64,000 nt of DNA, taken from NCBI GenBank assembly GCA_035652395.1, contig DASRDX010000013.1:3255-67254 (forward strand). Reading direction: 5' to 3'. Origin of the DNA: Minisyncoccota bacterium. Its GTDB lineage: Bacteria; Patescibacteriota; Minisyncoccia; Phycocordibacterales; CAJBRS01. Under the pieces are notes generated by a model. The model worked only from the letters and a program-made list of their open reading frames with translations, did no database searches and was not told the DNA's origin. The position numbers and the translations under genes were made by a program. Each line of letters begins with the position of its first letter. Position 1 is the stretch's first letter. Shown here in pieces: positions 7,654 to 21,085 of this stretch.

Positions 7654-7762
7654 AAAATGAATCTCCTCTATAATAAGCTTGAGTCCCAAACAACAAGATT
7701 CGGACTCTCCACACCTAACACAAGAATACGCCCGTTTGTATTCCTGAGTGTAATCCCAAACT

Positions 7763-8280: not shown

Positions 8281-8335
8281 GTTTCCCTCAGCCCTTTTGT
8301 AAAGGGGACTTTTTAAAAATGACTGCGAAACAAAT

Positions 8336-8427: not shown

Positions 8428-8498
8428 ATTAAACTTGCTTTACGTAAATTTTATAAACCAAAGTTCCATTCGGAATATAACGGCTCGCGCTTAAAATT

Positions 8499-8578
8499 TG
8501 GTCGCCCTGGGAAGATTTGGATACTTCCAACCCCGACGCTTAAAAGGCGTGTGCTCTTACCAATTGAGCTACAAGGCG
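8499..8578 (-). tRNA. tRNA-Lys (anticodon UUU)
   Basis: acceptor CGCCTTG/CAGGGCG, D-arm GCTC-AATTGGTAA-GAGC, loop CTTTTAA; enlarged T-loop. Confidence 0.55.
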
Positions 8579-8584
8579 AAAAAT

Positions 8585-8659
8585 TGGTAGTCCGCGACGG
8601 ATTCAAACCGTCACCTATCTCCTTAAGAGGGAGTAATGCCGTCATAACACCTGCGGACT
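8585..8659 (-). tRNA. tRNA-Lys (anticodon CUU)
   Basis: acceptor AGTCCGC/GCGGACT perfect, T-arm GACGG-TTTGAAT-CCGTC, loop CTCTTAA. Confidence 0.65.
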
Positions 8660-8710
8660 AAAAATTTTGTTGGGAACAACTCTCCGTTTGTTCCTTCTAT
8701 CACACAAAAT

Positions 8711-8799
8711 TGGTACTCGATGAAGGAATCGAACCTTCCAGCAAGGGTAATCTGCCCCGACGCTTTATAAGAGCGTGCTGCGGACCGCCGCTATCGAGT
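8711..8799 (-). tRNA. type II tRNA with anticodon UAU (atypical; identity unclear)
   Basis: acceptor ACTCGAT/ATCGAGT perfect, A73, T-arm GAAGG-TTCGATT-CCTTC, perfect anticodon stem ACGCT/AGCGT with loop CTTATAA, about 21-nt variable arm. Confidence 0.55.
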
Positions 8800-8803
8800 A
8801 AAC

Positions 8804-9040
8804 TTAAATTTGCTGTACAGGAGCGGGCTTACCGCGCAAAATTCCTTTCTGAATCATCTGCTCCGGCGTAAAAACATTTGGGTCAAATCTATTTTCATGG
8901 CCCAATAAATACTTCGGAGTTAAAGTGTGCCTGTCCGATTCGGGCAACTTACCCGACCTCATTTGCCTGGGTATATTGTAATGCGGCATATTGCCTCTTG
9001 ATAATCGAATTGGTGCGCTGCGAGAGAATCGAACTCCCAC
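8804..9040 (-). CDS. hypothetical protein
   Basis: 78-aa ORF between tRNAs; start uncertain (internal ATG at 8989). Confidence 0.25.
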   Translation of the reverse strand: MGVRFSRSAPIRLSRGNMPHYNIPRQMRSGKLPESDRHTLTPKYLLGHENRFDPNVFTPEQMIQKGILRGKPAPVQQI

Positions 9041-9098
9041 GCCGTTTTAAGGCCGAAGATTTTAAGTCTCCTGCGTCTGCCTGTTCCGCCAGCAGCGC
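9011..9098 (-). tRNA. tRNA-Leu (anticodon UAA)
   Basis: type II: acceptor GCGCTGC/GCAGCGC perfect, A73, T-arm GGGAG-TTCGATT-CTCTC, loop CTTAAAA. Confidence 0.75.
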
Positions 9099-9104
9099 AA
9101 AATT

Positions 9105-9191
9105 TGGTGCCTTTGGAGGGAATCGAACCCCCACGGGACTGTGCCCACCGCGTTTTGAGTGCGGCGCGTCTGCCTGTTCCACCACAAAAGC
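9105..9191 (-). tRNA. tRNA-Leu (anticodon CAA)
   Basis: type II: acceptor GCTTTTG/CAAAGGC, A73, T-arm GGGGG-TTCGATT-CCCTC, loop CTCAAAA. Confidence 0.65.
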
Positions 9192-9192
9192 A

Positions 9193-9266
9193 TGGCCCCT
9201 ATCCGTGGAATCGAACCACGACTACCTGTTCTTCAGACAGGGGTGCGGCCACTACACCAAACAGGG
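9193..9266 (-). tRNA. tRNA-Phe (anticodon GAA)
   Basis: acceptor CCCTGTT/GATAGGG, T-arm CGTGG-TTCGATT-CCACG, anticodon stem CCTGT/ACAGG with loop CTGAAGA. Confidence 0.65.
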
Positions 9267-9336
9267 ACAGAAACTTTGACTTTCTGAGAATCTAGAATGG
9301 CCCGCTTCATGCAGCAAGCCGAATACGGGCGACTGC

Positions 9337-9564
9337 TTAAAGCTTTCTTCGGGCCTTTCTTCCACCATATAATTCCGCATGGCCTCCCCAAACACTTTCG
9401 CGTGCCTCATGTGCCCCAAGGCCCGTTTCCAAAAGACGGCAGTACTTACGAAGGGCAACAATTGCTACTGCCGCGCTCTCTGGGTCATCCATGATTTCCG
9501 ACTCTAACGCCGATGCTTCTTGACGTTCTTCAAAATCAAGCTCAGCTACGGATTCCGTAATCAT
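9337..9564 (-). CDS. hypothetical acidic protein
   Basis: 75-aa ORF with RBS AAGGGG; preceded by a 26-aa ORF (9574-9651) with RBS AAGGAAG. Confidence 0.3.
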   Translation of the reverse strand: MITESVAELDFEERQEASALESEIMDDPESAAVAIVALRKYCRLLETGLGAHEARESVWGGHAELYGGRKARRKL

Positions 9565-9895
9565 CATTGGCCCCTTAACTCTTTTCCTTCAAAAGGCGAA
9601 CCAACTCCGAGTCCGACGTTGGAACGTGCTCGAATTGTTTACGGTCTGCCATGCCTTAAACTTCCTTAACGCTGTAATTATCAGGCTCGAACTTGCGGCC
9701 CTCAACCTGAGATTTTGCTTGCTGCAAAGCGGCTTGAGGGGTTTCGGCCTCGGCTTCAATCTTTATCTTCTGAGTCAAGGTAATTTTATACGTTTTCAAT
9801 TTTTTATCCTTTCAGCCTTGAGGGCCGTGGGTTGAAGGTAAGGAGTAGTAGAAAACCTCACGGCCCTCACTCTGCGCTTTACTTTACCACGCAAC

Positions 9896-9937
9896 CCGAA
9901 AACTTGTCAAGAACTATTTTCGGGTTTTTTCCCGCTG
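9896..9937 (+). terminator. intrinsic terminator-like hairpin
   Basis: ACCCGAAAA-loop-TTTTCGGGT followed by TTTTTT; a second hairpin CCCGCTGGCGCGGG and a T10 run lie just downstream. Confidence 0.4.
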
Positions 9938-10040
9938 GCGCGGGCTTAAACCGGGCATGTTTTTTTTTTAATTGTAGCCTCGACTACGCCCAGCATAACT
10001 CTTCGATAAAAAATCTACAACAACTCTTAAAATTTGTCAA

Positions 10041-10116
10041 CAGTTTTTTTTGGGGTGAAGAGTGGGAATCGAACCCTACACTGACTCTTTCACAGAGAGC
10101 CATGCTGCCGTTACAT
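10041..10116 (-). tRNA. tRNA-His-like (anticodon GUG), degenerate
   Basis: T-loop GGG-TTCGATT-CCC, anticodon stem GCTCT/AGAGT with loop CTGTGAA, C at discriminator as expected for His; weak T-stem and acceptor pairing. Confidence 0.45.
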
Positions 10117-10137
10117 CATCCACACCTCGGTTTAATT

Positions 10138-10349: not shown

Positions 10350-10775
10350 TTAGTTTCTTCCTGCCGTGCCATACTGCTTTTCGGCTGCCTTAAGAGCGGC
10401 GTTTGGCCGAACCGTGGCTTCGCCATGATTAGATTTAAGCGGCATGGGGCGCTGTGGATATGCCTCATCCGAACACATATCCGTTTTCTTTTCGGCGGGA
10501 ATTACTTTTTCTCCGGCATGTAATTTATATAAGCCTGTGCGAGGAACCGTGCCGCCATGCTTATAAGAACCTAAGACTTGGCCTAAAGCCTGTTTTGTTT
10601 CCTCGCCTTGAGTCTTTTGCATCAATTCGGCGTAGTCGGTGTCTTTTCCGCCCCTTCTATCTACTTCGCCTTGTTCGGCAATAAATTTTCGGCGCTGTTC
10701 GGGGTCTTTAATTCCTGCGGCCAATCTGCCGCGAGTTTTAGATAGAGCGGCTTTTTCTTGTTCGTTTAGAGGCAT
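10350..10775 (-). CDS. hypothetical protein
   Basis: ORF trimmed to MPLNEQEK start; basic, no motifs. Confidence 0.4.
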   Translation of the reverse strand: MPLNEQEKAALSKTRGRLAAGIKDPEQRRKFIAEQGEVDRRGGKDTDYAELMQKTQGEETKQALGQVLGSYKHGGTVPRTGLYKLHAGEKVIPAEKKTDMCSDEAYPQRPMPLKSNHGEATVRPNAALKAAEKQYGTAGRN

Positions 10776-11061: not shown

Positions 11062-11704
11062 TAAGTTTCCTTTGAATTTGTATTAATTCCAAAGCAGGCG
11101 ACAACAAACACATCTCATCAAATGTAAGGTTGTGTATGTGTCTAATTTCACGGCAGCGTTGGCATGCCGCAATAGCATTATAGGCCATTCCGACTTCCGA
11201 ATCAATCCAATCTACGGAACAGCCTTCGGGTTCTAGCTCGGCTTTACAATAATAACAGCCGTCCTTTAAAAGTTGCTCATAAAAGTTAATGTGCCAAAGC
11301 AAGTCAGTTTTAGGGGTATGCTTTTCTATGAGGACTGACTTTAATAGCCTATGCTTATACCCTATAGAACCCGTCCGAAAGGAATTAGACTTTTTAATTG
11401 TGGTCCTTAAAGTCCTAAGTTTAAAGTCAACCTGCTTCTGACGTTCGGCCAATCGGTCTAATTTCTCTAAATGCCTTTTCAAATTAAGTTCGGCCCGCAA
11501 ACAGCCGCAACTCTTCTTTCGGCCCGATACAAGTTTATCTTCACGGGCCAATACAAGTTTATTCTGACCTGTCTCATTTGAGCAATCACAGTCGCAAAGC
11601 CAATACCGCTTATTCTTCTCACTATGAGAAAACTGTCTCACTTTGAGACGCCCATAGGTGTTGCCAATTAAAGTCTGTGTCATAATGAGAACTGTTTGTC
11701 TCAA
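11042..11704 (-). CDS. HNH homing-endonuclease-like protein
   Basis: N-terminal YGRLKV...W.CDCDC...L.SG...SCGC block typical of phage HNH endonucleases, plus a C-terminal Cys/His cluster. Confidence 0.55.
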   Translation of the reverse strand: MRQTVLIMTQTLIGNTYGRLKVRQFSHSEKNKRYWLCDCDCSNETGQNKLVLAREDKLVSGRKKSCGCLRAELNLKRHLEKLDRLAERQKQVDFKLRTLRTTIKKSNSFRTGSIGYKHRLLKSVLIEKHTPKTDLLWHINFYEQLLKDGCYYCKAELEPEGCSVDWIDSEVGMAYNAIAACQRCREIRHIHNLTFDEMCLLSPALELIQIQRKLNDRHNK

Positions 11705-11712
11705 ATTGAGAC
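11607..11712. promoter_or_regulatory. operator-like palindromes GTCTCA-N3/4-TGAGAC (three copies)
   Basis: TCTCActaTGAGA 11607-11619, GTCTCActtTGAGAC 11635-11650, GTCTCAAATTGAGAC 11698-11712, straddling the HNH gene start. Confidence 0.5.
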
Positions 11713-12252
11713 GATTTTCGGTTCGTTCTAAAATCGGGTGTGGTTCTTTTACAACACCGAGTCATATACCCCATTTTTAGAAACAGGTCTGTTTGGTCAG
11801 TTGGGAAGGGTCATTTACCCCTAGTACCTTTGTTTTCTGTAATTTATGAACCAACGTCCACGTCCACGGCCACGAAGGGGCCTTGGGGCGTTTCACACCC
11901 CCTTAAAAGCCGCCTCGTACTATGAGTACTAGTAATACTATGAGTACTATTACCATTGAAAATAAAGGACTTATGTCGTCTCGATTTGCGGCCTGGACTG
12001 CCGTTCGGACTCACTTGCAGCGCGCTACTTTTCCGCCGTTTTTCTTGCTCGTTTTTCTTGCAAATTATTGTAAATACTAGACTTGTAAGCTTGAAATGTA
12101 AGGTTATCTTACATGTCAATGATTAGTACTAGTACCGCAAAACCGAATTTTGTAACATTTTTACCCGTTTTGTGGTAAAAATACAACATTTTTTGCGAAA
12201 TTGTGGCAAAAATGCCACAAAAAATGAGAATCGTCGCAAGTGTCGAGCATAT

Positions 12253-12313
12253 GTCTCAATTATGAGACTATCTCAGTATCATATTGAGACTGTCTCAATC
12301 TAATATTGAGAGA
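12253..12313. promoter_or_regulatory. second cluster of the same palindrome (three copies)
   Basis: GTCTCAattaTGAGAC 12253-12268, ATTGAGACtGTCTCAAT 12283-12299, CTCAATctaatATTGAG 12294-12313; then palindrome GAACGTGttcgcgCACGTTC. Confidence 0.5.
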
Positions 12314-12455
12314 ACGTGTTCGCGCACGTTCCCGTAAGGTCCGAATCCTAAACCGTCCACCAGGGCCGTCTCTTACCAGCCGCATTGTTTCCTCAGTCTC
12401 CAGCGGCCCCGCATGGACTCTCTCTCATAAGATGACTGTATGGCCCCGCAAGTAT

Positions 12456-12470
12456 TGACAAAAAGTGTCA
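12456..12470. promoter_or_regulatory. palindrome TGACAaaaagTGTCA (copy 1; second copy at 13321-13335)
   Basis: TTGACAAAAAGTGTCA occurs twice; copy 1 doubles as a -35 TTGACA followed 18 bp later by TAAATT. Confidence 0.45.
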
Positions 12471-12539
12471 CTTTTAGCTAAATTTTTATCATAACTATAA
12501 TAAAATCAATAACTTAATAAAATGCATATTCCGCGTTTC

Positions 12540-12620
12540 TTCGGGTTTTATGCCTGTTTCGTCCGCAACCTATAAGGTCAATATATAGGCTTTTTATAGG
12601 TGTTTCGTCGGACCTTACGG
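12540..12620. repeat. iteron-like direct repeats TTT(T)AT.GG.GTTTCGTC(C/G)G
   Basis: two to three imperfect copies in an AT-rich stretch of the non-coding region. Confidence 0.35.
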
Positions 12621-12654
12621 GCTTTTATTGGGTTTTGCAGGAAATTGACTGCAA

Positions 12655-12710
12655 GGTAGTAACTAGAAAATTAACAGTGGTGGCCAACTAGTAATTTTCT
12701 AGTTACTACC
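12655..12710. repeat. 19-bp perfect inverted repeat GGTAGTAACTAGAAAATTA / TAATTTTCTAGTTACTACC (18-nt spacer)
   Basis: seen directly; the largest perfect palindrome in the window, inside the 1.7-kb non-coding region. Confidence 0.85.
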
Positions 12711-13381
12711 CACTCCGACCGCGCCAGTGACAGCATTTTGATGTTAAGTCTTTTATTTTCAGTAACCGAATTCTGTCACAAAATGCCGTCAGTAGTGTGG
12801 GAGACACACTTTCCAATATCCCTATCATCATTTATTAATAGGCGAAGAAAAAACGAAAATAATAGTAAACATATTTATTTGCAATTACTTACAGACGATA
12901 AAATTTGCATATGGGTGCCATTTTTATATAAAAAATAATTGATTTTTTGGTCAAAAAATAGGTGTCTGTCTCCCTCTTAGGACAGAATCTTGGGACAGAA
13001 TTTGTACGTTGAAAACAAAAGACTTAATTCTGTCCAAGCATTTCCAAAAATTGACCAATTTTCGCAATCAGAAAATTTCACATTTTTCTATCGAAGGGCG
13101 GTCTCGATTCGATGTGGCAAAACTCGCCACCAAATTAGTAACCGTTTAGACACATTCGTTATCCACCGATTGCTGCGCTTCGCCTAACAGCGGGCATCAG
13201 GATGTTCGCCAGGACGGGCACCATCGGCCAAAAGAGCGCCTAGGACGTTCGTAATTCTGTTTTAAGCGCTCTCCCTTCATTCGCCTGTCGCAATCGTTCT
13301 AATAGGCTCTAATTGCGTTTTGACAAAAAGTGTCATGTTCGGGAAATAGAAGTACTATCAAAAATCAGTACCAAAGTACTA

Positions 13382-13410
13382 TTTACAATTAAATCTTCCT
13401 ACGATATTCT
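13382..13410 (+). promoter_or_regulatory. sigma70-like promoter TTTACA-17-TATTCT with upstream AGTACT elements
   Basis: hexamers spaced 17 bp; AAGTACTAT...AAAGTACTATT at 13351-13384; drives the first plus-strand gene. Confidence 0.5.
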
Positions 13411-13452
13411 CAGCGCAGAAGGAATGGAAACCGTGGAAAAAGGAGGGAGTCA

Positions 13453-13674
13453 ATGAAAGAATCTCAGTACACGCAAGATTATCTTGAGACGACCGCATCA
13501 GGCCGTTTTTACACCATCCAGACCTACTTGCACTATCAATTAAAGGGCACGGCCAAGTCTTATGCTGGTCGCTATGCCGAGGCGCTACGCAATTCCGTCA
13601 TTCGTCGCGGCGCAGTGCCCGTCCGTTCTTTGCATGGTGGCGTAGCCTACCGCATGCCCGAAGGGACGCGATAG
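13453..13674 (+). CDS. hypothetical protein
   Basis: 73-aa ORF with RBS AAGGAGGGAG. Confidence 0.45.
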   Translation: MKESQYTQDYLETTASGRFYTIQTYLHYQLKGTAKSYAGRYAEALRNSVIRRGAVPVRSLHGGVAYRMPEGTR

Positions 13675-13867
13675 CACGCTCTGCCGCGTCTGTGTTTTAT
13701 CCATCTTTAATAAGCCGTTTTGGCACGGACGCTTATTATACGCATAGACCGATATGTAAAATAAGCGACAGGACACGGCAGAAGTACCACCAAAAAATCG
13801 GTACCAAAGTACTATTTACAAAATTAAATTCCTATCGCATCATTCACATCGGCAGGGAGAAACAGCA

Positions 13868-14071
13868 ATGAACAAGGAAAAGTATATCAAGATTTTGGTG
13901 CTTTTGGATAGGTCAAGGGAATTATGCGCAAGAGAGGACAAGCATCTTTGGGAAGAACTCTTCTATGTGAGCATGGTAGTAGAGAAAAAGATTGATTCAT
14001 ACGGTGGATTCACCAAAAAAGAATACCGCAAAGTAAGCGAAGAGCTCGCCGCGACCGTCATGCCATTCTGA
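13868..14071 (+). CDS. hypothetical protein
   Basis: 67-aa ORF with RBS GGGAGAAAC, preceded by a promoter-like AGTACT module at 13783-13830. Confidence 0.4.
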   Translation: MNKEKYIKILVLLDRSRELCAREDKHLWEELFYVSMVVEKKIDSYGGFTKKEYRKVSEELAATVMPF

Positions 14072-14145
14072 CGGACCTTGGACTCAAGCGCGTCCGTGGT
14101 GCTTTGGGCGGAGTTTATTACGAGTAAAAAAAGGATGGGCGGCAA

Positions 14146-14355
14146 ATGAAAACCTATACGCTAAATCCAATTGATAATGTCGTTGAAAGAGTAGTAGGCG
14201 AGTACGACGAGATTATCCCCGATGTTGAATTATCGGACTTGCTTGCGGAAGAGTATGCTCAGGTTTTTCATAGGGATTACAGCCAATCAACCTATGCAAA
14301 GGTCTGCCAAAGGCTGAACGGCCTAGGCATTCGTGTTGTAAGGTCTGCTGGATAA
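14146..14355 (+). CDS. hypothetical protein
   Basis: 69-aa ORF. Confidence 0.4.
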   Translation: MKTYTLNPIDNVVERVVGEYDEIIPDVELSDLLAEEYAQVFHRDYSQSTYAKVCQRLNGLGIRVVRSAG

Positions 14356-14376
14356 AAACCTAGAAAGGATAGAACA

Positions 14377-14631
14377 ATGCAAGCAAAACCTGCCGTTGAA
14401 GTGATTCGTGAAGCCTACAGCAATCCTGCCAATCCTCAAAATCTGAGGCTTGCGCATAACGGCAAGCAAAATGCGATTGCTGCGTGGGACGCGGAACTTA
14501 ACCGTTTCGTGATGGTTGCGTCTGCCACCATAGATGGAAAGTGGGTGACCGTGCCTTACGAACTGCTTGTTAACGGCGAGCGTGTTGTTAGCGAGTGGTT
14601 TGAAGTAGAAAGGCAGGATGAAGCGCGATAG
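14377..14631 (+). CDS. hypothetical protein
   Basis: 84-aa ORF with RBS AAAGGATAGAACA. Confidence 0.4.
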   Translation: MQAKPAVEVIREAYSNPANPQNLRLAHNGKQNAIAAWDAELNRFVMVASATIDGKWVTVPYELLVNGERVVSEWFEVERQDEAR

Positions 14632-14683
14632 CCGTACTATCGCGTCCACGGAGTCCTAGACAAGAGTCCGACAGGAGGAACAA

Positions 14684-14977
14684 ATGAAAGTAGAAGTAGT
14701 CAAGAAAGTCAAGACCATACCTCCAGCGCACAAGTTGAGCGTGCTGTCAGCGGATGGCACGCTCAGCACAGTTGACATCACGTGGGAGAAACTCCGCTTT
14801 TCGCCTATTGGTGAGAAGTGGAGCGCCAAGGGAGTTGGCATGACGTGGAACGAGATGCTCACGGCAACGCTAGTCTATCGTGATGAGCATCAGGCCGTGA
14901 TTCTTGAATCGCGCGAGTACTTGCAAGAGGGGCACGACGCGCACTACGAGCATTGCTTGCTAGGCTTCGTGTTCTAG
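14684..14977 (+). CDS. hypothetical protein
   Basis: 97-aa ORF with RBS ACAGGAGGAACA. Confidence 0.45.
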   Translation: MKVEVVKKVKTIPPAHKLSVLSADGTLSTVDITWEKLRFSPIGEKWSAKGVGMTWNEMLTATLVYRDEHQAVILESREYLQEGHDAHYEHCLLGFVF

Positions 14978-15094
14978 GCTGATGAGTGGAAGGTATCTTT
15001 GTCCGTTTGTCGCGGCTGAAATGAATGCGATTCAAAAGGCAGGTCCCAGAAACATTTGGCTTCTTTTGGCCTATTAGACGCGAAAGGCAATAAG

Positions 15095-15313
15095 ATGACA
15101 TACGGCGAATCTGTCAGAATTTTGGTAGAAGCCGATTGCGTTGAACGCGGTCAAGCCGGACGCGGCGGCAAACCTTGTGGAACGGTCGAACCTGGACAAT
15201 TGGGATTATATCTGTATCCATGTCCAGGTACGTTTAAGCGCAGCGGCTGGCACGTTATTGCTTTCGGAGGATGGGACGTTTGTTTGCGCGAAGGACAATT
15301 TGAAAAAATTTAG
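15095..15313 (+). CDS. hypothetical protein
   Basis: ORF; start ambiguous (15056 or 15095). Confidence 0.3.
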   Translation: MTYGESVRILVEADCVERGQAGRGGKPCGTVEPGQLGLYLYPCPGTFKRSGWHVIAFGGWDVCLREGQFEKI

Positions 15314-15369
15314 TAATAGAACTTTCGTACCATTGACTATTTTCCTGAAGAATTGCTAAACTGCCAGCT

Positions 15370-17241
15370 ATGAAATTAACCTATCACGCGGAACGCAATC
15401 GCTTTGAGGCCGTGCTTGCCACGGGCAATGCTTGGCGAGCGGACTATCAGGCAGTCAAGGGTGCTGGTTTTCGGTGGGACGCGAATATAAAGAGCGTGTG
15501 GTTTACCACGGATTACAACGTGGCGGCGAAGATGGCGAAATATGCCGACGCGGCGGCGGCTAAAATTCTTAATGAAATGTCGCAGCGGGCCGCCGAAAGC
15601 CAAAAAGCCAGCCGTGCCACCGACGCGGCCGTTGAAATTCCTTCGCCTAGCGGTCTTAATTATCTTTCTTATCAAAAAGCGGGCATAGCCTACGCCATCC
15701 ATCGGCCACATACGCTCATTGCGGACGAGATGGGACTCGGCAAGACCATTCAAGCCATCGGCATTGCAAACGCCACTGAAGCAAAGCGTGTCCTAGTTGT
15801 TTGTCCCGCTAGTCTCAAACTTAATTGGATGCGTGAATTTACGAAATGGAACACGATTCCCAATCGAACGATTGCGGTCGCTAACGGTGAATTTCCTTCG
15901 GCTGACGTTGTTATAATCAATTACGACATTCTGAGAAAGCACGAATTCGCTATCCGCTCTATCAATTGGGATTTGCTAATTTGCGATGAGTGCCACTATC
16001 TCAAGAACTACAAAGCGGCGCGAACCCGTCAGGTTTTAGGCGGTGGCAAAGGTGGTGACCGCATAGAACCTATACCAGCGAAACGCAAAATTTTTCTGAC
16101 CGGTACCCCGATTGTCAATCGGCCAATCGAACTGTGGCCACTATTAAAATCTCTAGAACCAAACGGACTAGGACGAAATTGGAAGTACTACGTTTCACGT
16201 TATTGCGACGCGCACCATAATGGCTTTGCGTTGGACGTTTCTGGCGCGAGCAATCTAGAGGAATTGCAGCAAAAGCTTCGGTCGTCCATTATGATTCGTC
16301 GGCTGAAAAAGGATGTATTGGCAGACTTGCCTCCGAAGCGCCGTCAAATCATTGTGCTGGCGTCCGATGGTTTGGATGAAATTATCGAGCGTGAGAAAAA
16401 AGCCTACGAAGCTTTCGAACAGGCTGAATTGGAGTCCAAAACGGCGGCTTTCTCCGTATTGGCCAATCTTCGCCATGACACGGCGAAAGCAAAAATCCCG
16501 TTTGTCTTGGAGCACATTGAGCAAACTTTGGACGAGACAGACAAATTGGTGGTGATGTGCCATCATCATGATGTGGTGGACGCGATTGCCCAAAAATTCT
16601 CCGGTCAATGTGTAACGGTAGATGGCCGTACAGCGGCAGAAGATAGACAAATTGCCGTGGACAAATTTCAAAATGACAAGTCTTGCCGTTTGTTCGTCGG
16701 AACCATTAAAGCGGCTGGCGTCGGATTAACCTTGACGGCTGCATCTACCGTAATATTTGCGGAACTGGATTGGGTGCCCGGCAATGTCACACAGGCTGAA
16801 GACAGATTGCATCGCATCGGGCAAACCAACCCTGTATTGGTGCAACATCTTGTTTTGGACAAATCCTTGGACGCCAGAATGGTCGAAATAATCGTAGAGA
16901 AGCAAGCCAACATCGAACAGGCTCTCGATAAAGTAATTCCTTCGGAGCCACAAATTTATTCGTTCGCGCCAACAGAGAATAATGCTGCTCCAAAGCAAGA
17001 TACGCCAAATTTAACGGATGCCCAAATTGATGCTATTCATCGAGCACTCAAAATATTGGCTAATGCGTGTGACGGGGCACATTTGCTTGATGAATGTGGT
17101 TTTAACAAATTGGACAGCGCGTTTGGCAAGTCTTTGGCAAATGCGCCTCGCCTCACGCAAAAGATGGCACATTGTGGACTTAAGCTAGTTCGTAAATATC
17201 ATCGTCAAATACCACAAGATATTTTGTGTGTACTAGCTTGA
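15370..17241 (+). CDS. SNF2/RAD54-family DEAD-like helicase
   Basis: motifs LIADEMGLGKTIQAIG (I), DECHYLKN (II), LTGTP (III) and a helicase-C block with QAEDRLHRIGQ. Confidence 0.85.
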   Translation: MKLTYHAERNRFEAVLATGNAWRADYQAVKGAGFRWDANIKSVWFTTDYNVAAKMAKYADAAAAKILNEMSQRAAESQKASRATDAAVEIPSPSGLNYLSYQKAGIAYAIHRPHTLIADEMGLGKTIQAIGIANATEAKRVLVVCPASLKLNWMREFTKWNTIPNRTIAVANGEFPSADVVIINYDILRKHEFAIRSINWDLLICDECHYLKNYKAARTRQVLGGGKGGDRIEPIPAKRKIFLTGTPIVNRPIELWPLLKSLEPNGLGRNWKYYVSRYCDAHHNGFALDVSGASNLEELQQKLRSSIMIRRLKKDVLADLPPKRRQIIVLASDGLDEIIEREKKAYEAFEQAELESKTAAFSVLANLRHDTAKAKIPFVLEHIEQTLDETDKLVVMCHHHDVVDAIAQKFSGQCVTVDGRTAAEDRQIAVDKFQNDKSCRLFVGTIKAAGVGLTLTAASTVIFAELDWVPGNVTQAEDRLHRIGQTNPVLVQHLVLDKSLDARMVEIIVEKQANIEQALDKVIPSEPQIYSFAPTENNAAPKQDTPNLTDAQIDAIHRALKILANACDGAHLLDECGFNKLDSAFGKSLANAPRLTQKMAHCGLKLVRKYHRQIPQDILCVLA

Positions 17242-17308
17242 CAAGCGTGGGGCATTGCGCGAAGTTATGTACAATGGCGAATCCACACAGGAGATTATAT
17301 AACACGAA

Positions 17309-17521
17309 ATGGCTAAAACGGAAACCGCCTTGAAAATTGCATTCGATTCCAATCCGAATGGCTGGACACTACAATCTTTTGTTAATGCTGTACGAGAGGG
17401 TTACAAACTTATTTATAAGAATCGGCTGAAATTTGGAGTGTGGGGGCATTCTATCGCAGATTTGGCATTAGAAGGTTTCCGCAGGAGAGGCAATAAATTT
17501 TTTCTTTTTGTAGGGTCGTAA
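17309..17521 (+). CDS. hypothetical protein
   Basis: 70-aa ORF. Confidence 0.35.
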   Translation: MAKTETALKIAFDSNPNGWTLQSFVNAVREGYKLIYKNRLKFGVWGHSIADLALEGFRRRGNKFFLFVGS

Positions 17522-17555
17522 AAGAGCCGAACAGGTTGGAAAAAGGCAAAGAGGT

Positions 17556-17861
17556 TTGACAATGAGCGCAGATAACGGAATTTATATCGGGTGTTTTGCT
17601 GACGGTGAAATTCGAGTGATTCATGCTCAGGCAATCGAGAACCTTTGGTATCCTGACGGAGAGAATCCGAAGTATATAGTGGATTACTTTAGGCACGCGC
17701 CTGTTTTCCATAATATCGGAAAAGCCCGTCAAAAAGCTTTTGAGATGGAACAAGAGATTTTGTCGGATGATTTTTGCCCCGTCCTTGAGTACGGTATTAG
17801 TACTTTGAGATTTTCAAAATCTTTTGCGGAATACGCTAGATTGGAGCGCGAGGCGCGGTAA
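17556..17861 (+). CDS. hypothetical protein
   Basis: 101-aa ORF with RBS AAAGAGG. Confidence 0.4.
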   Translation: MTMSADNGIYIGCFADGEIRVIHAQAIENLWYPDGENPKYIVDYFRHAPVFHNIGKARQKAFEMEQEILSDDFCPVLEYGISTLRFSKSFAEYARLEREAR

Positions 17862-17898
17862 TTTCGGAAAGGGCCTAAAAATCAGTACTAAAGTACTA

Positions 17899-17927
17899 TT
17901 GATTTTAATCGAGAATCGGTTTATTCT
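17899..17927 (+). promoter_or_regulatory. promoter TTGATT-17-TATTCT with upstream AGTACT pair
   Basis: same architecture as the other AGTACT-associated promoters; upstream of the DUF932 gene. Confidence 0.5.
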
Positions 17928-17994
17928 TGTTTCACCACGCAGGGAAGCGGAAAAACATTGAAAGAGCCGAACAGGCTGGAAAGGAAGTTAAAAA

Positions 17995-18798
17995 ATGATT
18001 AGAAACGGCAACCGCAATTACACCCCACTGACCGACGAACAGATACAGGTATTCGCTCCGAGTGCTTTTGCTGGGCAAGCTTGGCGGGAGCGTAGTGAGC
18101 GGTATGCATTTATTCCCACTTCCGAAGTGATTGACGCGATGCGAAATAACGGGTTTTATCCTATTCAAGCCAGCCAATCTAATTCTCGCATCGAAGAAAA
18201 GCATTTTTTCACAAAACATATGATACGTTTCCAATCCCAAGCCGGCGATATGACAAAGGTCGGTGATTCCAAGTTAGAGTTGGTTTTGGTCAATTCCCAT
18301 GACGGTACTTCAGCGTATAAGCTTATGCTTGGGGTATTTCGTCTAGTTTGTTCTAATGGAATGATTGTAAGTGATGGTATGGCGGAATCAATCCATGTTC
18401 GTCACATGGGGAATATCGTCCAAGATGTTTTGACGGGAAGCTTTGAGTTGATTAAGCGTGCTCCTATAGTTGAATCGGCAATTGCGGCATGGCGGCAAAT
18501 TACATTGACTGAAGCAGAACAGCAATCCTTTGCCGAACAAGCCTTGACACTTCGTTATCCCGAAGGTTCGCCTATTACAGCGGAAAAAGCCCTTCGCGTT
18601 CGCCGTTATGACGACAACGGCAGCGACCTGTGGCATGTGTTTAATCGTGTGCAAGAGGCGGTCGTTCGTGGCGGAGACCGTTACTATAATAATGGCCGAC
18701 GCAATAAAACAAGAGAAGTTCGCGGCATAGACCAAAATATCAACCTTAACAGGTCCCTTTGGTCCTTGGCTGAGCAAGTAGCCATATCGAAAATGTAA
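17995..18798 (+). CDS. DUF932 (phage/plasmid-like) protein
   Basis: motifs LVNSHDGTSAYKL and FRLVCSNGM characteristic of the DUF932/TIGR03299 family. Confidence 0.65.
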   Translation: MIRNGNRNYTPLTDEQIQVFAPSAFAGQAWRERSERYAFIPTSEVIDAMRNNGFYPIQASQSNSRIEEKHFFTKHMIRFQSQAGDMTKVGDSKLELVLVNSHDGTSAYKLMLGVFRLVCSNGMIVSDGMAESIHVRHMGNIVQDVLTGSFELIKRAPIVESAIAAWRQITLTEAEQQSFAEQALTLRYPEGSPITAEKALRVRRYDDNGSDLWHVFNRVQEAVVRGGDRYYNNGRRNKTREVRGIDQNINLNRSLWSLAEQVAISKM

Positions 18799-18859
18799 CT
18801 CTCTTCTCACGGCAGGCGCTAGCCGAGAATAGTGCCAAAAAATTTTAGGAATAAAAAAT

Positions 18860-19057
18860 ATGAATAACGGAACTTTTTGTGGTCTTTTAACCTTATTGTT
18901 TATTGCGCTTAAAATTCTTGGGTACATTCATTGGAGTTGGTGGTGGGTGCTCTCCCCATTGTGGATTCCGTTGGTGCTTTTCGTTGTGGTTACGGTTATA
19001 ACACTCGTCTTTATGGGCGTAAGTGTCTCTAAATTACACAAATGGATGAAAAAATGA
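18860..19057 (+). CDS. small two-TM membrane protein
   Basis: 65 aa, two hydrophobic helices, Trp-rich. Confidence 0.45.
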   Translation: MNNGTFCGLLTLLFIALKILGYIHWSWWWVLSPLWIPLVLFVVVTVITLVFMGVSVSKLHKWMKK

Positions 19058-19491
19058 AGATTACAATCAAATCCCAAACAGGCGAAGTGCTCTATACATG
19101 CGAAGCTGAAAGTGTACGGGATGCAGTAGAAGACGCGATTAAGGCGGGTGTGAAATTTGCTAATGCAAATTTTAGGGGCGCAAACTTCAGGGGTGCGGAC
19201 CTTAGCGGCGCACACTTCAAGGGTGCGGACTTCAGGAACGCAAATCTTAGGGGCACAAACTTCAGGGGTGCGGACCTTAGAGACGCGGACATCAGAGGCG
19301 CAAACCTTATCGGCGCAAACCTTAGCGATGCAAATCTCAGAGATGCGGACCTCAGTGACTCGAATCTCATTGGCGCAAACCTTATTGGCGCAAATCTTAG
19401 CGGTGTATATTTCAGGTTTGCGAACCTCAGTGGTGCAAATCTCAGTGACGCAGACCTTAGCGACGCAGACTTCAGCGGCGCAGACTTTTAG
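19042..19491 (+). CDS. pentapeptide-repeat protein
   Basis: about 20 tandem A(N/D)(L/F)xx pentapeptides (ANFRGANFRGADLSGAHFKGADFRNANLRG...). Confidence 0.85.
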   Translation: MDEKMKITIKSQTGEVLYTCEAESVRDAVEDAIKAGVKFANANFRGANFRGADLSGAHFKGADFRNANLRGTNFRGADLRDADIRGANLIGANLSDANLRDADLSDSNLIGANLIGANLSGVYFRFANLSGANLSDADLSDADFSGADF

Positions 19492-19518
19492 GCGCATATT
19501 TTTTGAAAGAGACGAAAA

Positions 19519-19824
19519 ATGAAGATTACAATTAAATCTCAAACGGGTGAAGTGCTCTATACATGCAAAGCTGAGAATATACGGGACGCAGTAGAGACCG
19601 CCATTAAGGCGGGTGTGAAATTAGTTAATGCAAACCTTAGAGGCACACATTTAAATGGTGCGGACCTAAGCGGTGCAAATCTTAGAGGCGTAAATCTCAG
19701 CGGCACATATCTCAGTGGGGCAATCGTCGAAATTGTTCCGCGCATTTCCGTGTTGGAATTAATCATCCACGGTAAGCGGATTGGAGAAGGGCAGATTGCA
19801 TCGGCTTTAAAGCAATTGCGTTAA
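19519..19824 (+). CDS. pentapeptide-repeat protein (shorter paralog)
   Basis: N-terminus MKITIKSQTGEVLYTC.AE..RDAVE.AIKAGVK is nearly identical to the previous ORF, followed by pentapeptide repeats. Confidence 0.8.
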   Translation: MKITIKSQTGEVLYTCKAENIRDAVETAIKAGVKLVNANLRGTHLNGADLSGANLRGVNLSGTYLSGAIVEIVPRISVLELIIHGKRIGEGQIASALKQLR

Positions 19825-19834
19825 GGAAAGGCGG

Positions 19835-20059
19835 ATGGTAAAAATGCGTTCAAGAAACATGAAAAGTCTGATTGGTATGGCGAAGCTTATTCGGGCCGAA
19901 AGGATGCGATTTGAGAGCGAGTATCGGGAAAGATTGCGGCAAATTCGTGAGCGGCAGATAGCCGCCGAACTTCGAGAAGAGGGAGACGATTGCACGGCAA
20001 GCGTAAGTGAAATGACACGCGAATTTATTGAAGCGGACCATTTTGGGAGAGACCATTGA
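19835..20059 (+). CDS. hypothetical protein
   Basis: 74-aa charged, coiled-coil-like ORF. Confidence 0.4.
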   Translation: MVKMRSRNMKSLIGMAKLIRAERMRFESEYRERLRQIRERQIAAELREEGDDCTASVSEMTREFIEADHFGRDH

Positions 20060-20316
20060 TTACTTCTGAAAGAGTACAAGAATGGTTAGAGGAGTACGGC
20101 GAAGTTGATTTGCTAAACGAAGCAGCTTGCCGTTCTTTGGCCGAAAAATTGGCCAAACGCATTAACAGCGAGATTTTGCATCTTGAGAATGATAATAAGA
20201 AAAAACACATTCAAGAGAGCGGACCTAGGTGTAAAAATTGTGGGGCATTTACAACCTATATGCGTGTTTATACACACGGGTTGTGTATGCGATGTGAAAA
20301 TTTCAAAGGAAAGTAG
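20056..20316 (+). CDS. hypothetical zinc-ribbon protein
   Basis: C-terminal CKNCG...CMRC. Confidence 0.4.
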   Translation: MITSERVQEWLEEYGEVDLLNEAACRSLAEKLAKRINSEILHLENDNKKKHIQESGPRCKNCGAFTTYMRVYTHGLCMRCENFKGK

Positions 20317-20336
20317 GTATTGGTTTTGGGAGGAAA

Positions 20337-20832
20337 AGTACTATTAAAAAATGAAACTAAAGTACTATTGTATTTAATCCTAGATTGGTGTACTATGGTT
20401 TTAATAAGTGGTATCAACCCGCTAGACCTCGTACGAGTCATAAGTGCGGGATATGATGGCCGGAAGCGGAAGGCCCAAGACCGCTTATTAAGTGGGGCGG
20501 GGTAGATGCCCGCCCTACTTAAAATGGGAAAAATGTAAAAGTCTGATTGGGTATGCGTATTTATTGTGTATATGCGATGGGATGAAAAGTACTATTAAAA
20601 AATGAAACTAAAGTACTATTGTATTTAATTCGAGATTGATATATTATGGTTTTTGAGAACGACACCTTTACCGAAATTCAAAGGGGTTTTCGGACGCTAC
20701 TTAAAAGTACCGAAACGCGGGCGTAGCGTTGGATGCGGGTTCGACTCCCGCCGTTCTTAAAAAATTTTTGCTGTGACGCGTTTTAGTAGGGTGGGGACGC
20801 TCACCCTACTTAAAATGGGAAAAATATAAAAG
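20337..20832 (+). promoter_or_regulatory. tandemly duplicated promoter-leader module (two copies of about 250 bp)
   Basis: near-identical 55-bp AAAAGTACTATTAAAAAATGAAACTAAAGTACTATTGTATTTAAT at 20337 and 20586; promoters TTGTAT-17-TACTAT (20368-20396) and TTGTAT-17-TATTAT (20619-20647); each leader ends in a covarying hairpin (20490-20520, 20785-20810) followed by CTTAAAATGGGAAAAATNTAAAAG. Confidence 0.55.
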
Positions 20833-20839
20833 AGGTGAA

Positions 20840-21085
20840 ATGAAAACTCAATATAGCGTATCAGAAGAAGTTAGAGCCGCCGTGGAACATTTAATTCAAG
20901 TAGGCGTTAAGCACAAAATGCTAGTGGCAGGTTTTGTTTTTTCGGCTAATCCGCCGTCCATCATAAACTTTGGTAATTGTACAGATTACAGTAAGGCGAG
21001 CCTATATAATTCACTTTGCGAATTGGCGGAACGCCAACGCAATTCCGGCCATTTTTGTACGGAAACGGTTGGTGTGGTACAATAA
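20840..21085 (+). CDS. hypothetical protein
   Basis: 81-aa ORF with RBS AAAGAGGTGAA. Confidence 0.45.
   Translation: MKTQYSVSEEVRAAVEHLIQVGVKHKMLVAGFVFSANPPSIINFGNCTDYSKASLYNSLCELAERQRNSGHFCTETVGVVQ

Follow-up and report, generated by a model that had tools for sequence, protein, structure and literature searches.

The locus raises a simple question: what is repeated here, and what would the repeated units make? It lies in a window of 64,000 nucleotides, the whole stretch of DNA that was analysed. An earlier note on this DNA described two tandem modules of about 250 bp, each carrying paired boxes, a promoter, a leader of about 190 nt and a hairpin with an invariant tail. We interpret the region as two tandem early transcription units that arose by duplication of a promoter, a small RNA, a hairpin, a ribosome-binding site (RBS) and a gene, and we put the probability of this reading at about 0.6. 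The tandem repeat is real and biologically meaningful, but represents a variation on known regulatory cassettes and no new mechanism. Coordinates of the features are given in Table 1.

Table 1. Features of the tandem unit and of related promoters in the window
Feature	Position	Strand	Details
Sister promoter	13350..13410	+	Three GTAC cores; TTTACA-17-TATTCT; 35-nt leader to ORF
Sister promoter	13782..13843	+	TTTACA-17-CATCAT
Sister promoter before DUF932 gene	17872..17927	+	CAGTACTAAAGTACTA-TTGATT-17-TATTCT
Copy 1 distal AAGTACTATT box	20336..20345	+	About -68 to -59 from predicted start
Copy 1 core promoter	20360..20396	+	Proximal box 20360-69; -35 TTGTAT 20368-73; 17-nt spacer; -10 TACTAT 20391-96
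RNA1, predicted three-way junction	20403..20489	+	From predicted +1; fold z = -3.4
Hairpin 1	20488..20522	+	14-bp GC-rich stem, 7-nt loop; adjoins P1; -26.0 kcal/mol; no U-tract
Tail 1 and gene remnants	20518..20582	+	Putative ancestral RBS/start UGGGAAAAAUG, now AUGUAA
Copy 2 promoter	20587..20647	+	Boxes 20587-96 and 20611-20; -35 TTGTAT 20619-24; 17-nt spacer; -10 TATTAT 20642-47
RNA2, predicted tRNA-like cloverleaf	20655..20759	+	Homologues in two phages, compensatory changes
Hairpin 2	20781..20814	+	AGUAGGGUGGG / CUCACCCUACU; lengthened by U/A pairs; -23.2 kcal/mol; no U-tract
Tail 2	20809..20842	+	Followed by live RBS GAGGTG 20832-37 and ATG of 81-aa ORF at 20840

Anatomy of the tandem unit

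Two blocks of sequence are shared between the copies. The 76-nt promoter block (D1) occurs at 20327-20402 and 20578-20653 with 92% identity and a spacing of 251, and the 37-nt hairpin and tail block (D2) occurs at 20505-20541 and 20796-20832 with 89% identity and a spacing of 291. The roughly 100 nt between these blocks show no relation between copy 1 and copy 2, and the interiors are two unrelated RNAs, which we call RNA1 and RNA2. The elements all lie where they had been placed, but the modules are not simple tandem copies, as only their ends are homologous. The leader length given earlier likewise suits copy 2 (about 186 nt) and not copy 1 (about 120-140 nt).

The tail CTTAAAATGGGAAAAAT lies at 20518-34 and 20809-25. 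It had been taken for a separate functional motif; its sequence reads instead as a fossil RBS and start codon, with apparent pseudogene remnants after it. After the AUGUAA of copy 1 comes a vestige of the start of the MKSLIG gene, as found at 19859. Comparison with 19850-19880 identifies decayed pieces of two flanking genes inside the duplication unit, namely an ORF74-like 5′ end (D5, 20537-50) and an ORF86-like 3′ end (D4, 20567-82). These scars at 20537-82 are compatible with recombination between cassettes. The 76-nt promoter repeats would serve as recombination substrates; exchange between them would explain how the unit was duplicated, why deletion scars remain and why some strains but not others have a third copy. 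A 2.35-kb strain indel at window position 17348/49 does contain a third promoter copy, and the promoter repeats do not bound it. The module is 100% identical among sister-strain contigs, which is uninformative on selection because these contigs are about 99.7-100% identical genome-wide. The region and the neighbouring 227-aa gene have no DNA match to cultured phages; homologues of the 227-aa and 81-aa ORFs occur in other phages, but in none of them is the module present. Exact-pattern scans of IMG/VR and JGI with the tail returned chance matches or none.

The two hairpins were reported to have arms that differ between copies yet stay complementary. This is real covariation, though thin (n = 2): one difference between the stems is compensatory (C-G to U-A), two are one-sided and wobble-compatible, and one terminal pair is lost. 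Strong, non-homologous hairpins occupy the equivalent relative position in two other phages, L126 and L140. Both hairpins of the window are followed by AAAAUGGGAAAAAU, and a terminator role for them is doubtful because they have no U-tracts. A terminator scan lists neither, while a canonical terminator is present elsewhere in the window (3017-3043, minus strand). A downstream hairpin would block 3′ exonucleases or attenuate read-through and, after cleavage of the transcript, would cap and stabilise the 5′ end of the remaining mRNA.

A sigma-70-type promoter with an adjoining palindrome

The two boxes and the TTGTAT-17-TACTAT or TTGTAT-17-TATTAT hexamers of each copy are located as first described. 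Their spacing falls within the 16-18 bp that separates -35-like and -10-like hexamers in sigma-70-type promoters. Judged by its sequence, the promoter of each unit is of sigma-70 type, with the -35 element adjoined by the right arm of a palindrome centred at about -43.5. The proximal box of copy 1 is this right arm, that of AGTAC-N4-GTACT; in both promoters of the tandem unit the left arm is degenerate (GAAAC) and the right arm alone is retained. Predicted starts lie 7±1 nt past the -10 element, at A20403 in copy 1 and at T20654 or G20655 in copy 2. Each falls on or beside the first base of a compact RNA with paired 5′ and 3′ ends.

The same architecture recurs in the window, as had been noticed, at 13350, 13782 and 17872; each of these sites has the two hexamers 17 bp apart and stands upstream of a gene. 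Five promoter copies lie at 13.3-20.7 kb, and sister strains have a sixth. Allowing up to one mismatch, AAGTACTATT boxes number 16 in the window against 4.3 expected, a count reached by 0/100 shuffles, and all seven exact copies (13374 to 20620) are on the plus strand.

The element is also found well beyond this phage. A 16-mer, GTACYAAAGTACTATT, matches 79 IMG/VR loci, and a longer version matches 8 JGI contigs; of 81 unique instances, 49 have G as the next base, which gives TTG. A -10-like hexamer follows at a spacer of exactly 17 in 28/49 viral and metagenomic instances, against 0-5 at other spacings, and in 43/107 genomic instances. The palindrome keeps the same register to the -35 and -10 elements in dozens of uncultivated phage contigs, several of which are related to this phage, as protein similarity and tRNA-array layout show. 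Many promoters of related phages carry a box (A/G)GTACTAYC at the distal position, followed by an A-run, and in the clade it is usual for a distal AGTACTA box to lie about 24 bp further upstream. In relatives, the promoter type drives a tmRNA (L193, 69 bits) and a tRNA with a 95-nt insert (L123, 38 bits), and in L134 the order is promoter, ncRNA, promoter, gene. Among genome matches to the upstream palindrome, 42/109 are labelled Chloroflexota and 14/109 Acidobacteriota. A 31-nt promoter query against cultured phage DNA gave only jumbo-phage matches at chance level, exact-pattern scans of IMG/VR and JGI for the two-box promoter gave chance matches or none, and the motif string had no literature match.

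We next consider which protein would read these promoters. The earlier note proposed a phage-specific promoter family recognised with a sigma-like protein encoded at 43452-43835, and a related possibility is that the boxes are operators of a phage repressor. The boxes are confined to the early region and to a single strand, the element is conserved across related but otherwise very divergent phages, and the phage has genes for a small HTH protein and an integrase-like protein, all of which would suit a phage factor. Against this, the hexamers with their 17-bp spacer are of the standard host type, and early promoters have to fire before phage proteins are made. The 127-aa product of 43452-43835 has HTH and sigma region 4 matches that fall below the Pfam cut-offs. 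An identical 17-mer in the same register stands at conserved chromosomal genes on Acidobacteriota and Chloroflexota contigs of 0.2-1.2 Mb. Because it also occurs at chromosomal promoters of metagenome-assembled genomes from these phyla, the promoter element is not phage-specific, and we regard a phage-specific class, or operators of a phage repressor, as decidedly unlikely. The suggested likeness to T4 late promoters is unsupported too, since a -35 element is present at a fixed spacing of 17 bp. A dimeric host DNA-binding protein, either an activator or a repressor, would read the palindrome rather than a phage sigma factor, and a phage protein may act at the boxes as a repressor for shut-off.

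The palindrome resembles LexA operators. The cyanobacterial LexA consensus is RGTACNNNDGTWCB (PMC3091678), and AGTAC-TAAA-GTACT fits it at every letter and has the same 5-4-5 geometry as LexA/Cheo-type boxes. The consensus is also matched by AGTAC(C/T)AAAGTACT at 13367-80 and 17885-98 and, with R = G, by GGTACCAAAGTACT at 13800-13; the promoters of the tandem unit fit by half only, because their left arm is GAAAC. One exact genomic match, in Nostoc flagelliforme, is upstream of dinB. Unlike LexA boxes, the palindrome here stands upstream of the -35 element and not across the promoter core, and most of its genomic matches are in Chloroflexota and Acidobacteriota before non-SOS genes, such as those for TonB-C-like and S8 protease/repeat proteins. 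A LexA-regulon reading seems improbable, as most genomic matches are at non-SOS genes.

RNA1, a predicted three-way junction seen in one lineage

The note had argued for a functional structure in the leaders, and the RNA between promoter and hairpin is indeed folded and under structural constraint, as compensatory pairs in a paralogue of RNA1 and in homologues of RNA2 indicate. On its predicted fold, RNA1 is a lineage-specific three-way junction. P1 pairs 20403-12 with 20480-89, P2 pairs 20418-22 with 20446-50 and encloses an inner hairpin, and P3 pairs GGCC at 20458-61 with 20472-75. The paralogue, at L002:5917-6027 in sister strains, keeps 27/27 pairs, four of them through compensatory changes, compared with 33-44% paired in slid controls; this support comes from paralogues of one species, and the 65-nt identical core may reflect gene conversion. 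A covariance model of RNA1 found no homologue beyond this species, and exact-pattern scans of IMG/VR and JGI with pieces of its core gave chance matches or none.

RNA2, a predicted tRNA-shaped RNA shared by three phages

A tRNA-like T-arm had been recognised in copy 2, GCGGG-TTCGACT-CCCGC at 20735-20751. It holds up as one arm of a complete cloverleaf, in which the 5′ strand of the acceptor stem had gone unnoticed. The acceptor stem pairs 20655-61 with 20752-58 and leaves A20759 as the discriminator. H1, at the position of the D-arm, pairs 20671-76 with 20688-93 (a 6-bp stem with an 11-nt loop), and H2, at the position of the anticodon arm, pairs 20695-700 with 20723-28 around a 22-nt loop. 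A linker at 20729-34 leads to the T-arm. No CCA is encoded, and the 3′ end reads A-AAAAAUUUUU.

A covariance model applied to related phages, a check that the note had named, found homologues of RNA2 at L126:6682-6902 (83.9 bits) and, independently, at L140:10067-10179 (55.1 bits). Proteins of these two phages are only 30-60% identical to those of this phage. Compensatory pairs number 7/23 with two sequences and 11/23 with three, and 100% of cells pair; the three-sequence alignment was fitted to the model, and the family comprises three RNAs, two of which come from a single metagenome. The pair support was reached by 0/500 shuffles, and slid controls gave 31-52%. True tRNAs align to the model end to end at 14-23 bits. 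All three phages have the RNA directly after the promoter, with 7-8 nt from the -10 element to G1 of RNA2, then a strong non-homologous hairpin and then a gene. The H2 loops are 22, 65 and 31 nt long. Comparative evidence thus describes RNA2 as a four-helix, tRNA-shaped RNA that appears conserved, with compensatory changes, in two other phages. Motif scans for RNA2 found nothing past L126 and L140, the L126 homologue has no Rfam match, and a further candidate, in L202, proved to be a chance match in coding sequence.

We suggest that RNA2 would be a non-decoding tRNA mimic. An RNase P cut would be needless because RNA2 is predicted to start at +1, and host enzymes of tRNA 3′ processing (RNase Z or RNase E) would cut it from the nascent early transcript in the A/U-rich trailer past discriminator A. 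The freed RNAs are candidates for a decoy or competitor of tRNA-recognising enzymes or defence nucleases; the functions of both RNA1 and RNA2 are inferred.

Other identities for the two RNAs

Instead of small RNA genes, both RNAs could be cis-acting 5′ leaders that control the downstream ORFs in the manner of a riboswitch, attenuator or thermosensor. An ORF follows RNA2 and each of its homologues, the RNA1 paralogue in sister strains runs directly into a 106-aa ORF, and the hairpins of the window and of L140 lie 20-30 nt upstream of the Shine-Dalgarno sequence (SD). However, RNA1 is intact in copy 1 though no ORF follows it there, where decayed gene fragments give way to the next promoter, and the ORFs after the RNA2 homologues are not mutually homologous. 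The missing U-tract, the tRNA shape of RNA2 and the fact that no alternative terminator/antiterminator pairing was seen and no cis-regulatory family was matched in Rfam also speak against leaders, which we consider unlikely. Still less probable is a decoding tRNA, for example tRNA-Leu(UAA), with an anticodon loop interrupted by a short insertion or intron. RNA2 does have a cloverleaf with a 7-bp acceptor stem, a 5-bp T-stem with a loop (UUCGACU) of the form UUCRANY, and discriminator A; its large loop opens with a canonical-looking CUUAAAA containing the anticodon UAA, and the insert-bearing tRNA of L123 stands behind the same promoter type. It lacks a 5-bp anticodon stem with a 7-nt loop, and H1 does not form a canonical D-arm. 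The putative anticodon varies along with loop length (UAA versus AGA) while acceptor identity positions stay constant. ARAGORN makes no call by default and mutually inconsistent calls at relaxed thresholds, and no Rfam tRNA match is reported, with same-clan overlaps below the 16.7-bit tmRNA match hidden. Nearly all inspected phage tRNA genes (20 with a canonical T-loop motif) encode CCA, in contrast to RNA2, and we know of no bacterial or phage mechanism for the removal of such short tRNA inserts.

The least credible readings, to which we give hardly any weight, are that RNA2 is a minimal tmRNA-like molecule or that its T-arm and acceptor segment derives from a host tRNA gene and serves as an attP core. 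Rfam at E ≤ 10 gives a weak tmRNA match and otherwise noise. That match (16.7 bits, E = 1.3e-4 in a 751-nt search) falls far below the cut-off of 47, even though related phages have real tmRNAs, one of them after this promoter type. The G3·U70 pair is absent (3:70 is G-C in 3/3 homologues), as are a pseudoknot and a tag frame, since reading the sequence gives no ORF past Ala-Thr-stop, and the body of RNA2 consists of two hairpins at tRNA positions. The attachment-site idea, also raised in the note, is favoured by the presence of an integrase-family gene at 57406-58383, but this sole such gene in the window is 37 kb away. The segment forms the 3′-terminal part of an RNA predicted to begin at the promoter +1, and its stems covary among three phages, which is unexpected for a sequence bound to match a host tRNA gene. 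A YrlA Y RNA was rejected on separate grounds: there is no Rfam match at E ≤ 10, and the two ends of RNA2 pair as an acceptor stem and not as the stem that binds Ro. The ORFs scanned include no TROVE/Ro protein.

Implications

The tandem early units offer a promoter architecture that can be tested in a large clade of phages, uncultivated, about 95-105 kb in size and equipped with tRNA arrays, and in their probable host phyla, Chloroflexota and Acidobacteriota, in which promoters are barely characterised. A palindrome common to phage and chromosomes is in addition a clue to host assignment. RNA genes, among them a tmRNA, tRNAs with inserts and further ncRNAs, often stand behind early promoters in these phages, and RNA2 represents a small, covariation-backed family of tRNA-shaped RNAs that escapes standard tRNA and Rfam tools. 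A bolder proposal, tentative and on balance rather unlikely, has two parts. The RNA2 family would be an undescribed class of phage tRNA mimic, placed at the very start of the early transcript, in which an acceptor/T-arm elbow with a non-decoding body decoys or titrates tRNA-directed host factors or defences, for example anticodon nucleases, other tRNA-cleaving toxins and CCA-adding or processing enzymes. The AATAGTAC-N4-GTACTATT palindrome fused to the -35 element would be a global Chloroflexota/Acidobacteriota promoter element, read by a dimeric factor and copied by their phages for early genes. If the mimic does counter tRNA-targeting defences, or punctuates or stabilises early mRNAs, it would be a new tool of phage takeover.

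Comparison with known systems

The closest known counterparts of the tandem unit are the promoter-early stem-loop (PeSL) regulatory cassettes of T4-type phages (Arbiol et al. 2010, PMC2839356; Comeau et al. 2014, PMC4122927). As with PeSLs, composite repeats of about 100 bp lie in a plastic early region of a lytic-type phage genome, accompanied by duplications, deletion scars and strain-level indels. Both combine a strong sigma-70-like promoter, A/T-rich on its upstream side, with a stem-loop of a G-run and a C-run (GGGGCGGG/CCCGCCC here), an SD and a start codon. In PeSLs the stem-loop is inside or adjacent to the promoter and acts as a terminator, whereas here it is 100-150 nt downstream of the -10 element, about 65 nt short of the boxes of the next promoter, and has no U-tract. 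The cargo here is a structured RNA rather than an ORFan, the upstream region carries a specific palindrome common to host chromosomes, the strain indel examined is not bounded by repeats, and terminator activity is doubtful.

Known tRNA mimics include the tRNA-like domain of tmRNA, the 3′ tRNA-like structures (TLSs) of plant viruses, mascRNA and the YrlA Y RNAs, and T4 encodes the stable RNAs C and D beside its tRNA genes. As in such mimics, the two ends of RNA2 form an acceptor stem with discriminator A, its T-arm is canonical with a UUCGAMU loop, and a GG-containing loop at the D position could form a tRNA elbow; recognition by tRNA-processing enzymes is likely. RNA2 differs from them in matching no Rfam family and in its anticodon-position loop of 22-65 nt, from tmRNA in having neither tag nor pseudoknots, and from viral TLSs in standing first on an early transcript of a DNA phage, from the predicted +1. 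In tRNA-linked mRNAs, the tRNA punctuation mode, transcripts are processed by release of the tRNA. RNA2 is not a decoding tRNA, unlike the elements of that mode, but like them it would share a transcript with a message downstream and has an A/U-rich trailer after it, and a tRNA-shaped element with such a trailer is therefore predicted to be released by tRNA 3′ processing.

Two cassettes in a mosaic repeat

The repeat at 20337-20832 is real, yet mosaic. A 76-nt block occurs twice with 92% identity (20327-20402 and 20578-20653, spacing 251 nt), as does a 37-nt block with 89% identity (20505-20541 and 20796-20832, spacing 291 nt). The earlier note had described tandem copies of one module; a repeat is present, but only its ends are homologous, the two spacings are unequal, and the interiors between the duplicated blocks are unrelated. 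The AAGTACTATT boxes, the TTGTAT-17-TACTAT/TATTAT hexamers, both hairpins, the tail, and the T-arm all lie where that note had placed them. The AAGTACTATT box is strongly over-represented (16 matches with at most one mismatch, against 4.3 expected; 0/100 shuffles gave as many), and every one of the seven exact boxes lies at 13.4-20.6 kb, on the plus strand.

Our comparisons show two host-type promoter cassettes in which, judged from sequence, transcription is placed to begin at the first base of a compact RNA of conserved structure. These are RNA1, a three-way-junction RNA in the upstream copy 1 (20403-20489), and RNA2, a tRNA-like cloverleaf in copy 2 (20655-20759). A strong hairpin that lacks a U-tract comes after each (-26.0 kcal/mol for hairpin 1, -23.2 kcal/mol for hairpin 2). 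Between the two hairpins there is one compensatory change (C-G to U-A); two other single changes are wobble-compatible, and one terminal pair has been lost. The claim that they covary is correct, but on a very slender basis of one true compensatory change between two copies. Canonical U-tract terminators are found elsewhere in the phage, for example at 3017-3043 on the minus strand.

Two gene remnants persist after hairpin 1: a 14/14-nt match to the start of a 74-aa ORF (AAAAGTCTGATTGG at 19862) and 16 nt with 88% identity to the end of the 86-aa ORF. They imply an ancestral unit of promoter, RNA, hairpin, RBS, and gene(s), from which the genes of copy 1 have since been deleted. The supposed invariant tail, UGGGAAAAAUG, is present but reads as a former RBS and start codon that has become AUGUAA (copy 1) or AUAUAA (copy 2); copy 2 employs a new SD, GAGGUG, at 20832. 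The motif CTACTTAAAA occurs three times (20514-20523, 20697-20706, and 20805-20814), in the 3' arms and tails of both hairpins and within RNA2, where it runs from the 5' strand of H2 into the beginning of the large loop. It is missing from the RNA2 homologues in two related phages, L126 and L140.

Genomic setting

The window belongs to a phage genome of about 92-95 kb, of which ten near-identical contigs were retrieved, all from soil-type metagenomes. No cultured phage resembling it at the DNA level was found, and its family-A DNA polymerase shares no more than 40% identity with Xylella and Xanthomonas siphophage counterparts. Principal features are collected in the table. The divergent gene-poor region may be a control region or origin. 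It contains TGAGAC/GTCTCA repeats, AGTACT-rich stretches (11920-11955), and near-consensus promoters (e.g., at 12455). Plus-strand early and replication genes come next (SNF2 helicase, DUF932, pentapeptide proteins, prim-pol, RNR, and PolA), and the cassettes are located in this early block between an 86-aa ORF (end 20316) and an 81-aa ORF (start 20840).

The protein of the latter (ORF81, 20840-21085) is assigned by NCBI to a MAG labelled Candidatus Paceibacterota, which is probably a mis-binned phage contig. Two further contigs bearing the promoter motif (L290 and L311) are in a bin labelled "uncultured archaeon LFW-28". The integrase-like and TnpB-type pair may represent an element of the IS/OMEGA type, or else point to a temperate lifestyle. 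The row of four hairpins overlaps small ORFs called in sister contigs and could be further structured RNA.

Features of the window and of retrieved contigs (window positions unless a contig handle is given; L002, sister strain)
Feature	Position	Strand	Detail
tRNA array	3050-10125	minus	32 genes; ARAGORN
Divergent gene-poor region	11700-13350		1.6 kb; between minus-strand block (two ORFs and tRNA array) and plus-strand early genes
Four consecutive strong hairpins	14559-14602, 14623-45, 14734-67, 14792-14823	plus	stems 9-20 bp
Strain indel	L002:3881-6232; gap in window at 17348/17349		2.35 kb; three ORFs and third promoter-RNA1 cassette
Ribonucleotide reductase large subunit	33292-36801	plus	split by intein with LAGLIDADG homing endonuclease
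Phage_integrase-domain ORF	57406-58383	plus	325 aa; 31.8 bits
ORF with Cas12f1-like TNB domain (TnpB-type nuclease)	58489-59811	plus	440 aa; directly after integrase-like ORF
RNA2 family acceptor stem			7 bp; n = 3 members
RNA2 family D-position stem			6 bp, GG in loop; n = 3 members
RNA2 family anticodon-position stem			5-7 bp; n = 3 members
RNA2 family T-stem			5 bp, UUCGAMU loop; n = 3 members
Standard tmRNA	L193:1061-1390	minus	directly behind promoter
Circularly permuted tmRNA	L134:1156-1567	plus	tag AKRKLAQVIAF...ALAA; contig with same promoter motif
Circularly permuted tmRNA	L115:11829-12249	minus	tag AKRKLAQVIAF...ALAA; contig with same promoter motif
tRNA with ~95-nt anticodon-loop insertion	L123:1270-1427	plus	38.3 bits; behind same-type promoter

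RNA1 and a third cassette

Taken from its predicted start at A20403, RNA1 has the fold of a three-way junction (z = -3.4), with a closing stem of 10-13 bp. Six sister-strain contigs hold a third cassette, within the segment missing from the window, in which the same promoter block is followed by an RNA1 paralogue that runs into a 106-aa ORF. All 27 pairs are kept across copy 1 and three paralogue variants, as against 33-44% in slid controls. Four pairs are altered on both sides, one of them, in P3, passing from G-C through G·U to A-U; this support is within one species. The paralogues have an identical 65-nt core, a pattern that either selection or gene conversion could explain. Strain variation in the RNA1 paralogue is far above the genome average of ~0.1%. 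Neither an RNA1 homologue outside these paralogues nor an Rfam match was found, the covariance search covering sequence retrieved around pattern matches.

RNA2 is a tRNA-shaped RNA

The T-arm with its acceptor-like 3' strand, picked out in the earlier note, proved to be part of a tRNA-shaped RNA. The CGUUCUU directly after the T-arm pairs with GAGAACG at 20655-61. This is the first run of purines beyond the -10, 7-8 nt from it. A homologous RNA lies straight after the same kind of promoter in L126 (a 98.5-kb contig), and a covariance model built from these two RNAs then picked up, independently, a third one in L140 (55.1 bits, E about 1e-14), at the same position relative to the DUF932 gene. 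The proposed covariance search of related phages thus returned homologues with covarying stems; it covered sequence fetched around pattern matches. All three members, two of them from one metagenome, share acceptor, D-position, anticodon-position, and T helices, together with a 5-6-nt linker before the T-arm and a discriminator A. Both sides are changed in 7/23 pairs with two sequences and in 11/23 with three, the latter in an alignment fitted to the covariance model. Every cell of the three-sequence alignment pairs; 0/500 shuffles equal this, and slid partners pair at 31-52%. Downstream of the RNA, each of the three phages has an A/U-rich trailer, a strong but non-homologous hairpin, and an SD with ATG, in that order; in L126 further structured RNA intervenes between hairpin and SD.

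RNA2 falls within the broad class of tRNA-like RNAs, and genuine tRNAs align with its model over the whole length, at 14-23 bits. As an ordinary tRNA it was rejected: ARAGORN and Rfam call no tRNA, the "anticodon" loop has 22 nt (65 and 31 nt in the homologues), the D-position arm is atypical, the putative anticodon varies (UAA in RNA2, AGA in the homologues), and CCA is not encoded, as it is in nearly all inspected bona fide tRNA genes of the phage. A tmRNA was also rejected (16.7 bits against a cut-off of 47, a G-C pair at 3:70, and no tag ORF), and no match to a curated RNA family was found. The suggestion that the T-arm is the core of an attachment site is disfavoured because the stems covary and the sole integrase-like gene in the window is 37 kb distant. 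L140 also has an odd ARAGORN tRNA-like gene (10468-10540, plus strand) with a 2-nt "anticodon" and a CCA-like end, in the early region ~290 nt downstream of its RNA2 homologue.

A promoter element shared with bacterial chromosomes

The same promoter design recurs, as the earlier note had observed, at 13350-13410, 13782-13843, and 17872-17927, with short leaders (17-60 nt) to ORFs. We queried public collections with GTACYAAAGTACTATT, the proximal part of the element, which matched 79 IMG/VR loci; a longer version matched eight JGI contigs. The next base is G, giving TTG, in 49/81 unique instances (typically TTGACA, TTGCAA, or TTGCAT), and 28 of these 49 have a -10-like hexamer at a spacer of exactly 17; the remaining spacings between 12 and 23 give 0-5 each. 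As a rule an SD and an ATG come next, within 10-45 nt. Comparison across instances identifies the boxes as arms of a palindrome, AGTAC-N4-GTACT, centred at about -43.5 and often longer (AATAGTAC-YAAA-GTACTATT), whose final two T's double as bases 1 and 2 of the -35. The "first box" of the earlier note corresponds to an extra distal (A/G)GTACTAYC box with an A-run, seen in many phage instances. Both cassette promoters keep the right arm and the distal box and have a degenerate left arm (GAAAC).

Several matching contigs are true relatives: their proteins are 30-60% identical to those of the window phage, and they match it in the minus-strand tRNA array and the divergent early region, so the element is much better conserved than the proteins. 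In relatives the same-type promoter drives a tmRNA in L193 (69 bits) and a tRNA with an insert in L123 (38 bits), as well as other long non-coding leaders. The L123 insert, at ~95 nt, is too short for a group I intron. Leaders of ~190-340 nt sharing a 3' motif, AUAUCGUCCCA, follow the promoter on the minus strands of L134 (motif at 1090) and L191 (motif at 7228). L134 has the order promoter, ncRNA, promoter, gene, the same tandem layout as the window.

A 17-mer including the TTG matched 109 loci in one-genome-per-species bacterial collections, 42 labelled Chloroflexota (mostly Anaerolineae) and 14 Acidobacteriota, and the -10-like hexamer again peaks at spacer 17 (43/107 unique). About ten Acidobacteriota matches are one orthologous promoter, on contigs of up to 1.2 Mb, before a ~600-aa protein whose C-terminus, judged by eye, is TonB-like; several Anaerolineae and Chloroflexia matches precede S8-protease or SFDSWAD-repeat proteins. 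Palindrome, -35, and -10 are conserved in MAGs of Acidobacteriota (L216, L221, L231, L251, L256, L258, L264, L284, and L297) and Chloroflexota (L205, L235, L298, and L306). The presence of the same promoter on these chromosomes speaks for a host factor as the reader of the element, and for hosts of the phage clade within these two phyla. The same element and register at chromosomal loci argue against the phage-specific promoter class proposed earlier, and also against reading by the HTH/sigma-like 127-aa protein (43452-43835), whose Pfam hits are sub-threshold. The palindrome shares the 5-4-5 geometry of Cheo/LexA boxes and fits the cyanobacterial LexA consensus, RGTACNNNDGTWCB (PMC3091678), and one match (Nostoc) precedes dinB. 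LexA is a lead only, since the Chloroflexota and Acidobacteriota matches precede non-SOS genes.

Proposed mechanism and comparison with known systems

We infer that RNA2 is a non-decoding tRNA mimic. Host tRNA 3'-processing enzymes would release it by cutting in the A/U-rich trailer; since RNA2 starts at +1, no RNase P cut would be needed. The hairpin would then stabilise any upstream RNA at its 3' end and the downstream message at its new 5' end. Attenuation of read-through is a further possible role, though the phage has U-tract terminators elsewhere. The most attractive guess for a role in trans is that RNA1 and RNA2 act as decoys or competitors for tRNA-recognising enzymes or defence nucleases.

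The wider value lies in a promoter/operator element common to uncultivated phages and Chloroflexota and Acidobacteriota chromosomes, and in a new tRNA-shaped RNA family. The closest likeness is to the PeSLs (promoter-early stem-loop cassettes) of T4-type phages, which are also repeated promoter and stem-loop cassettes in a plastic early region (PMC2839356; PMC4122927). The window cassettes differ in that the one indel examined is not bounded by repeats, in the position of the stem-loop, and in carrying an RNA cargo.
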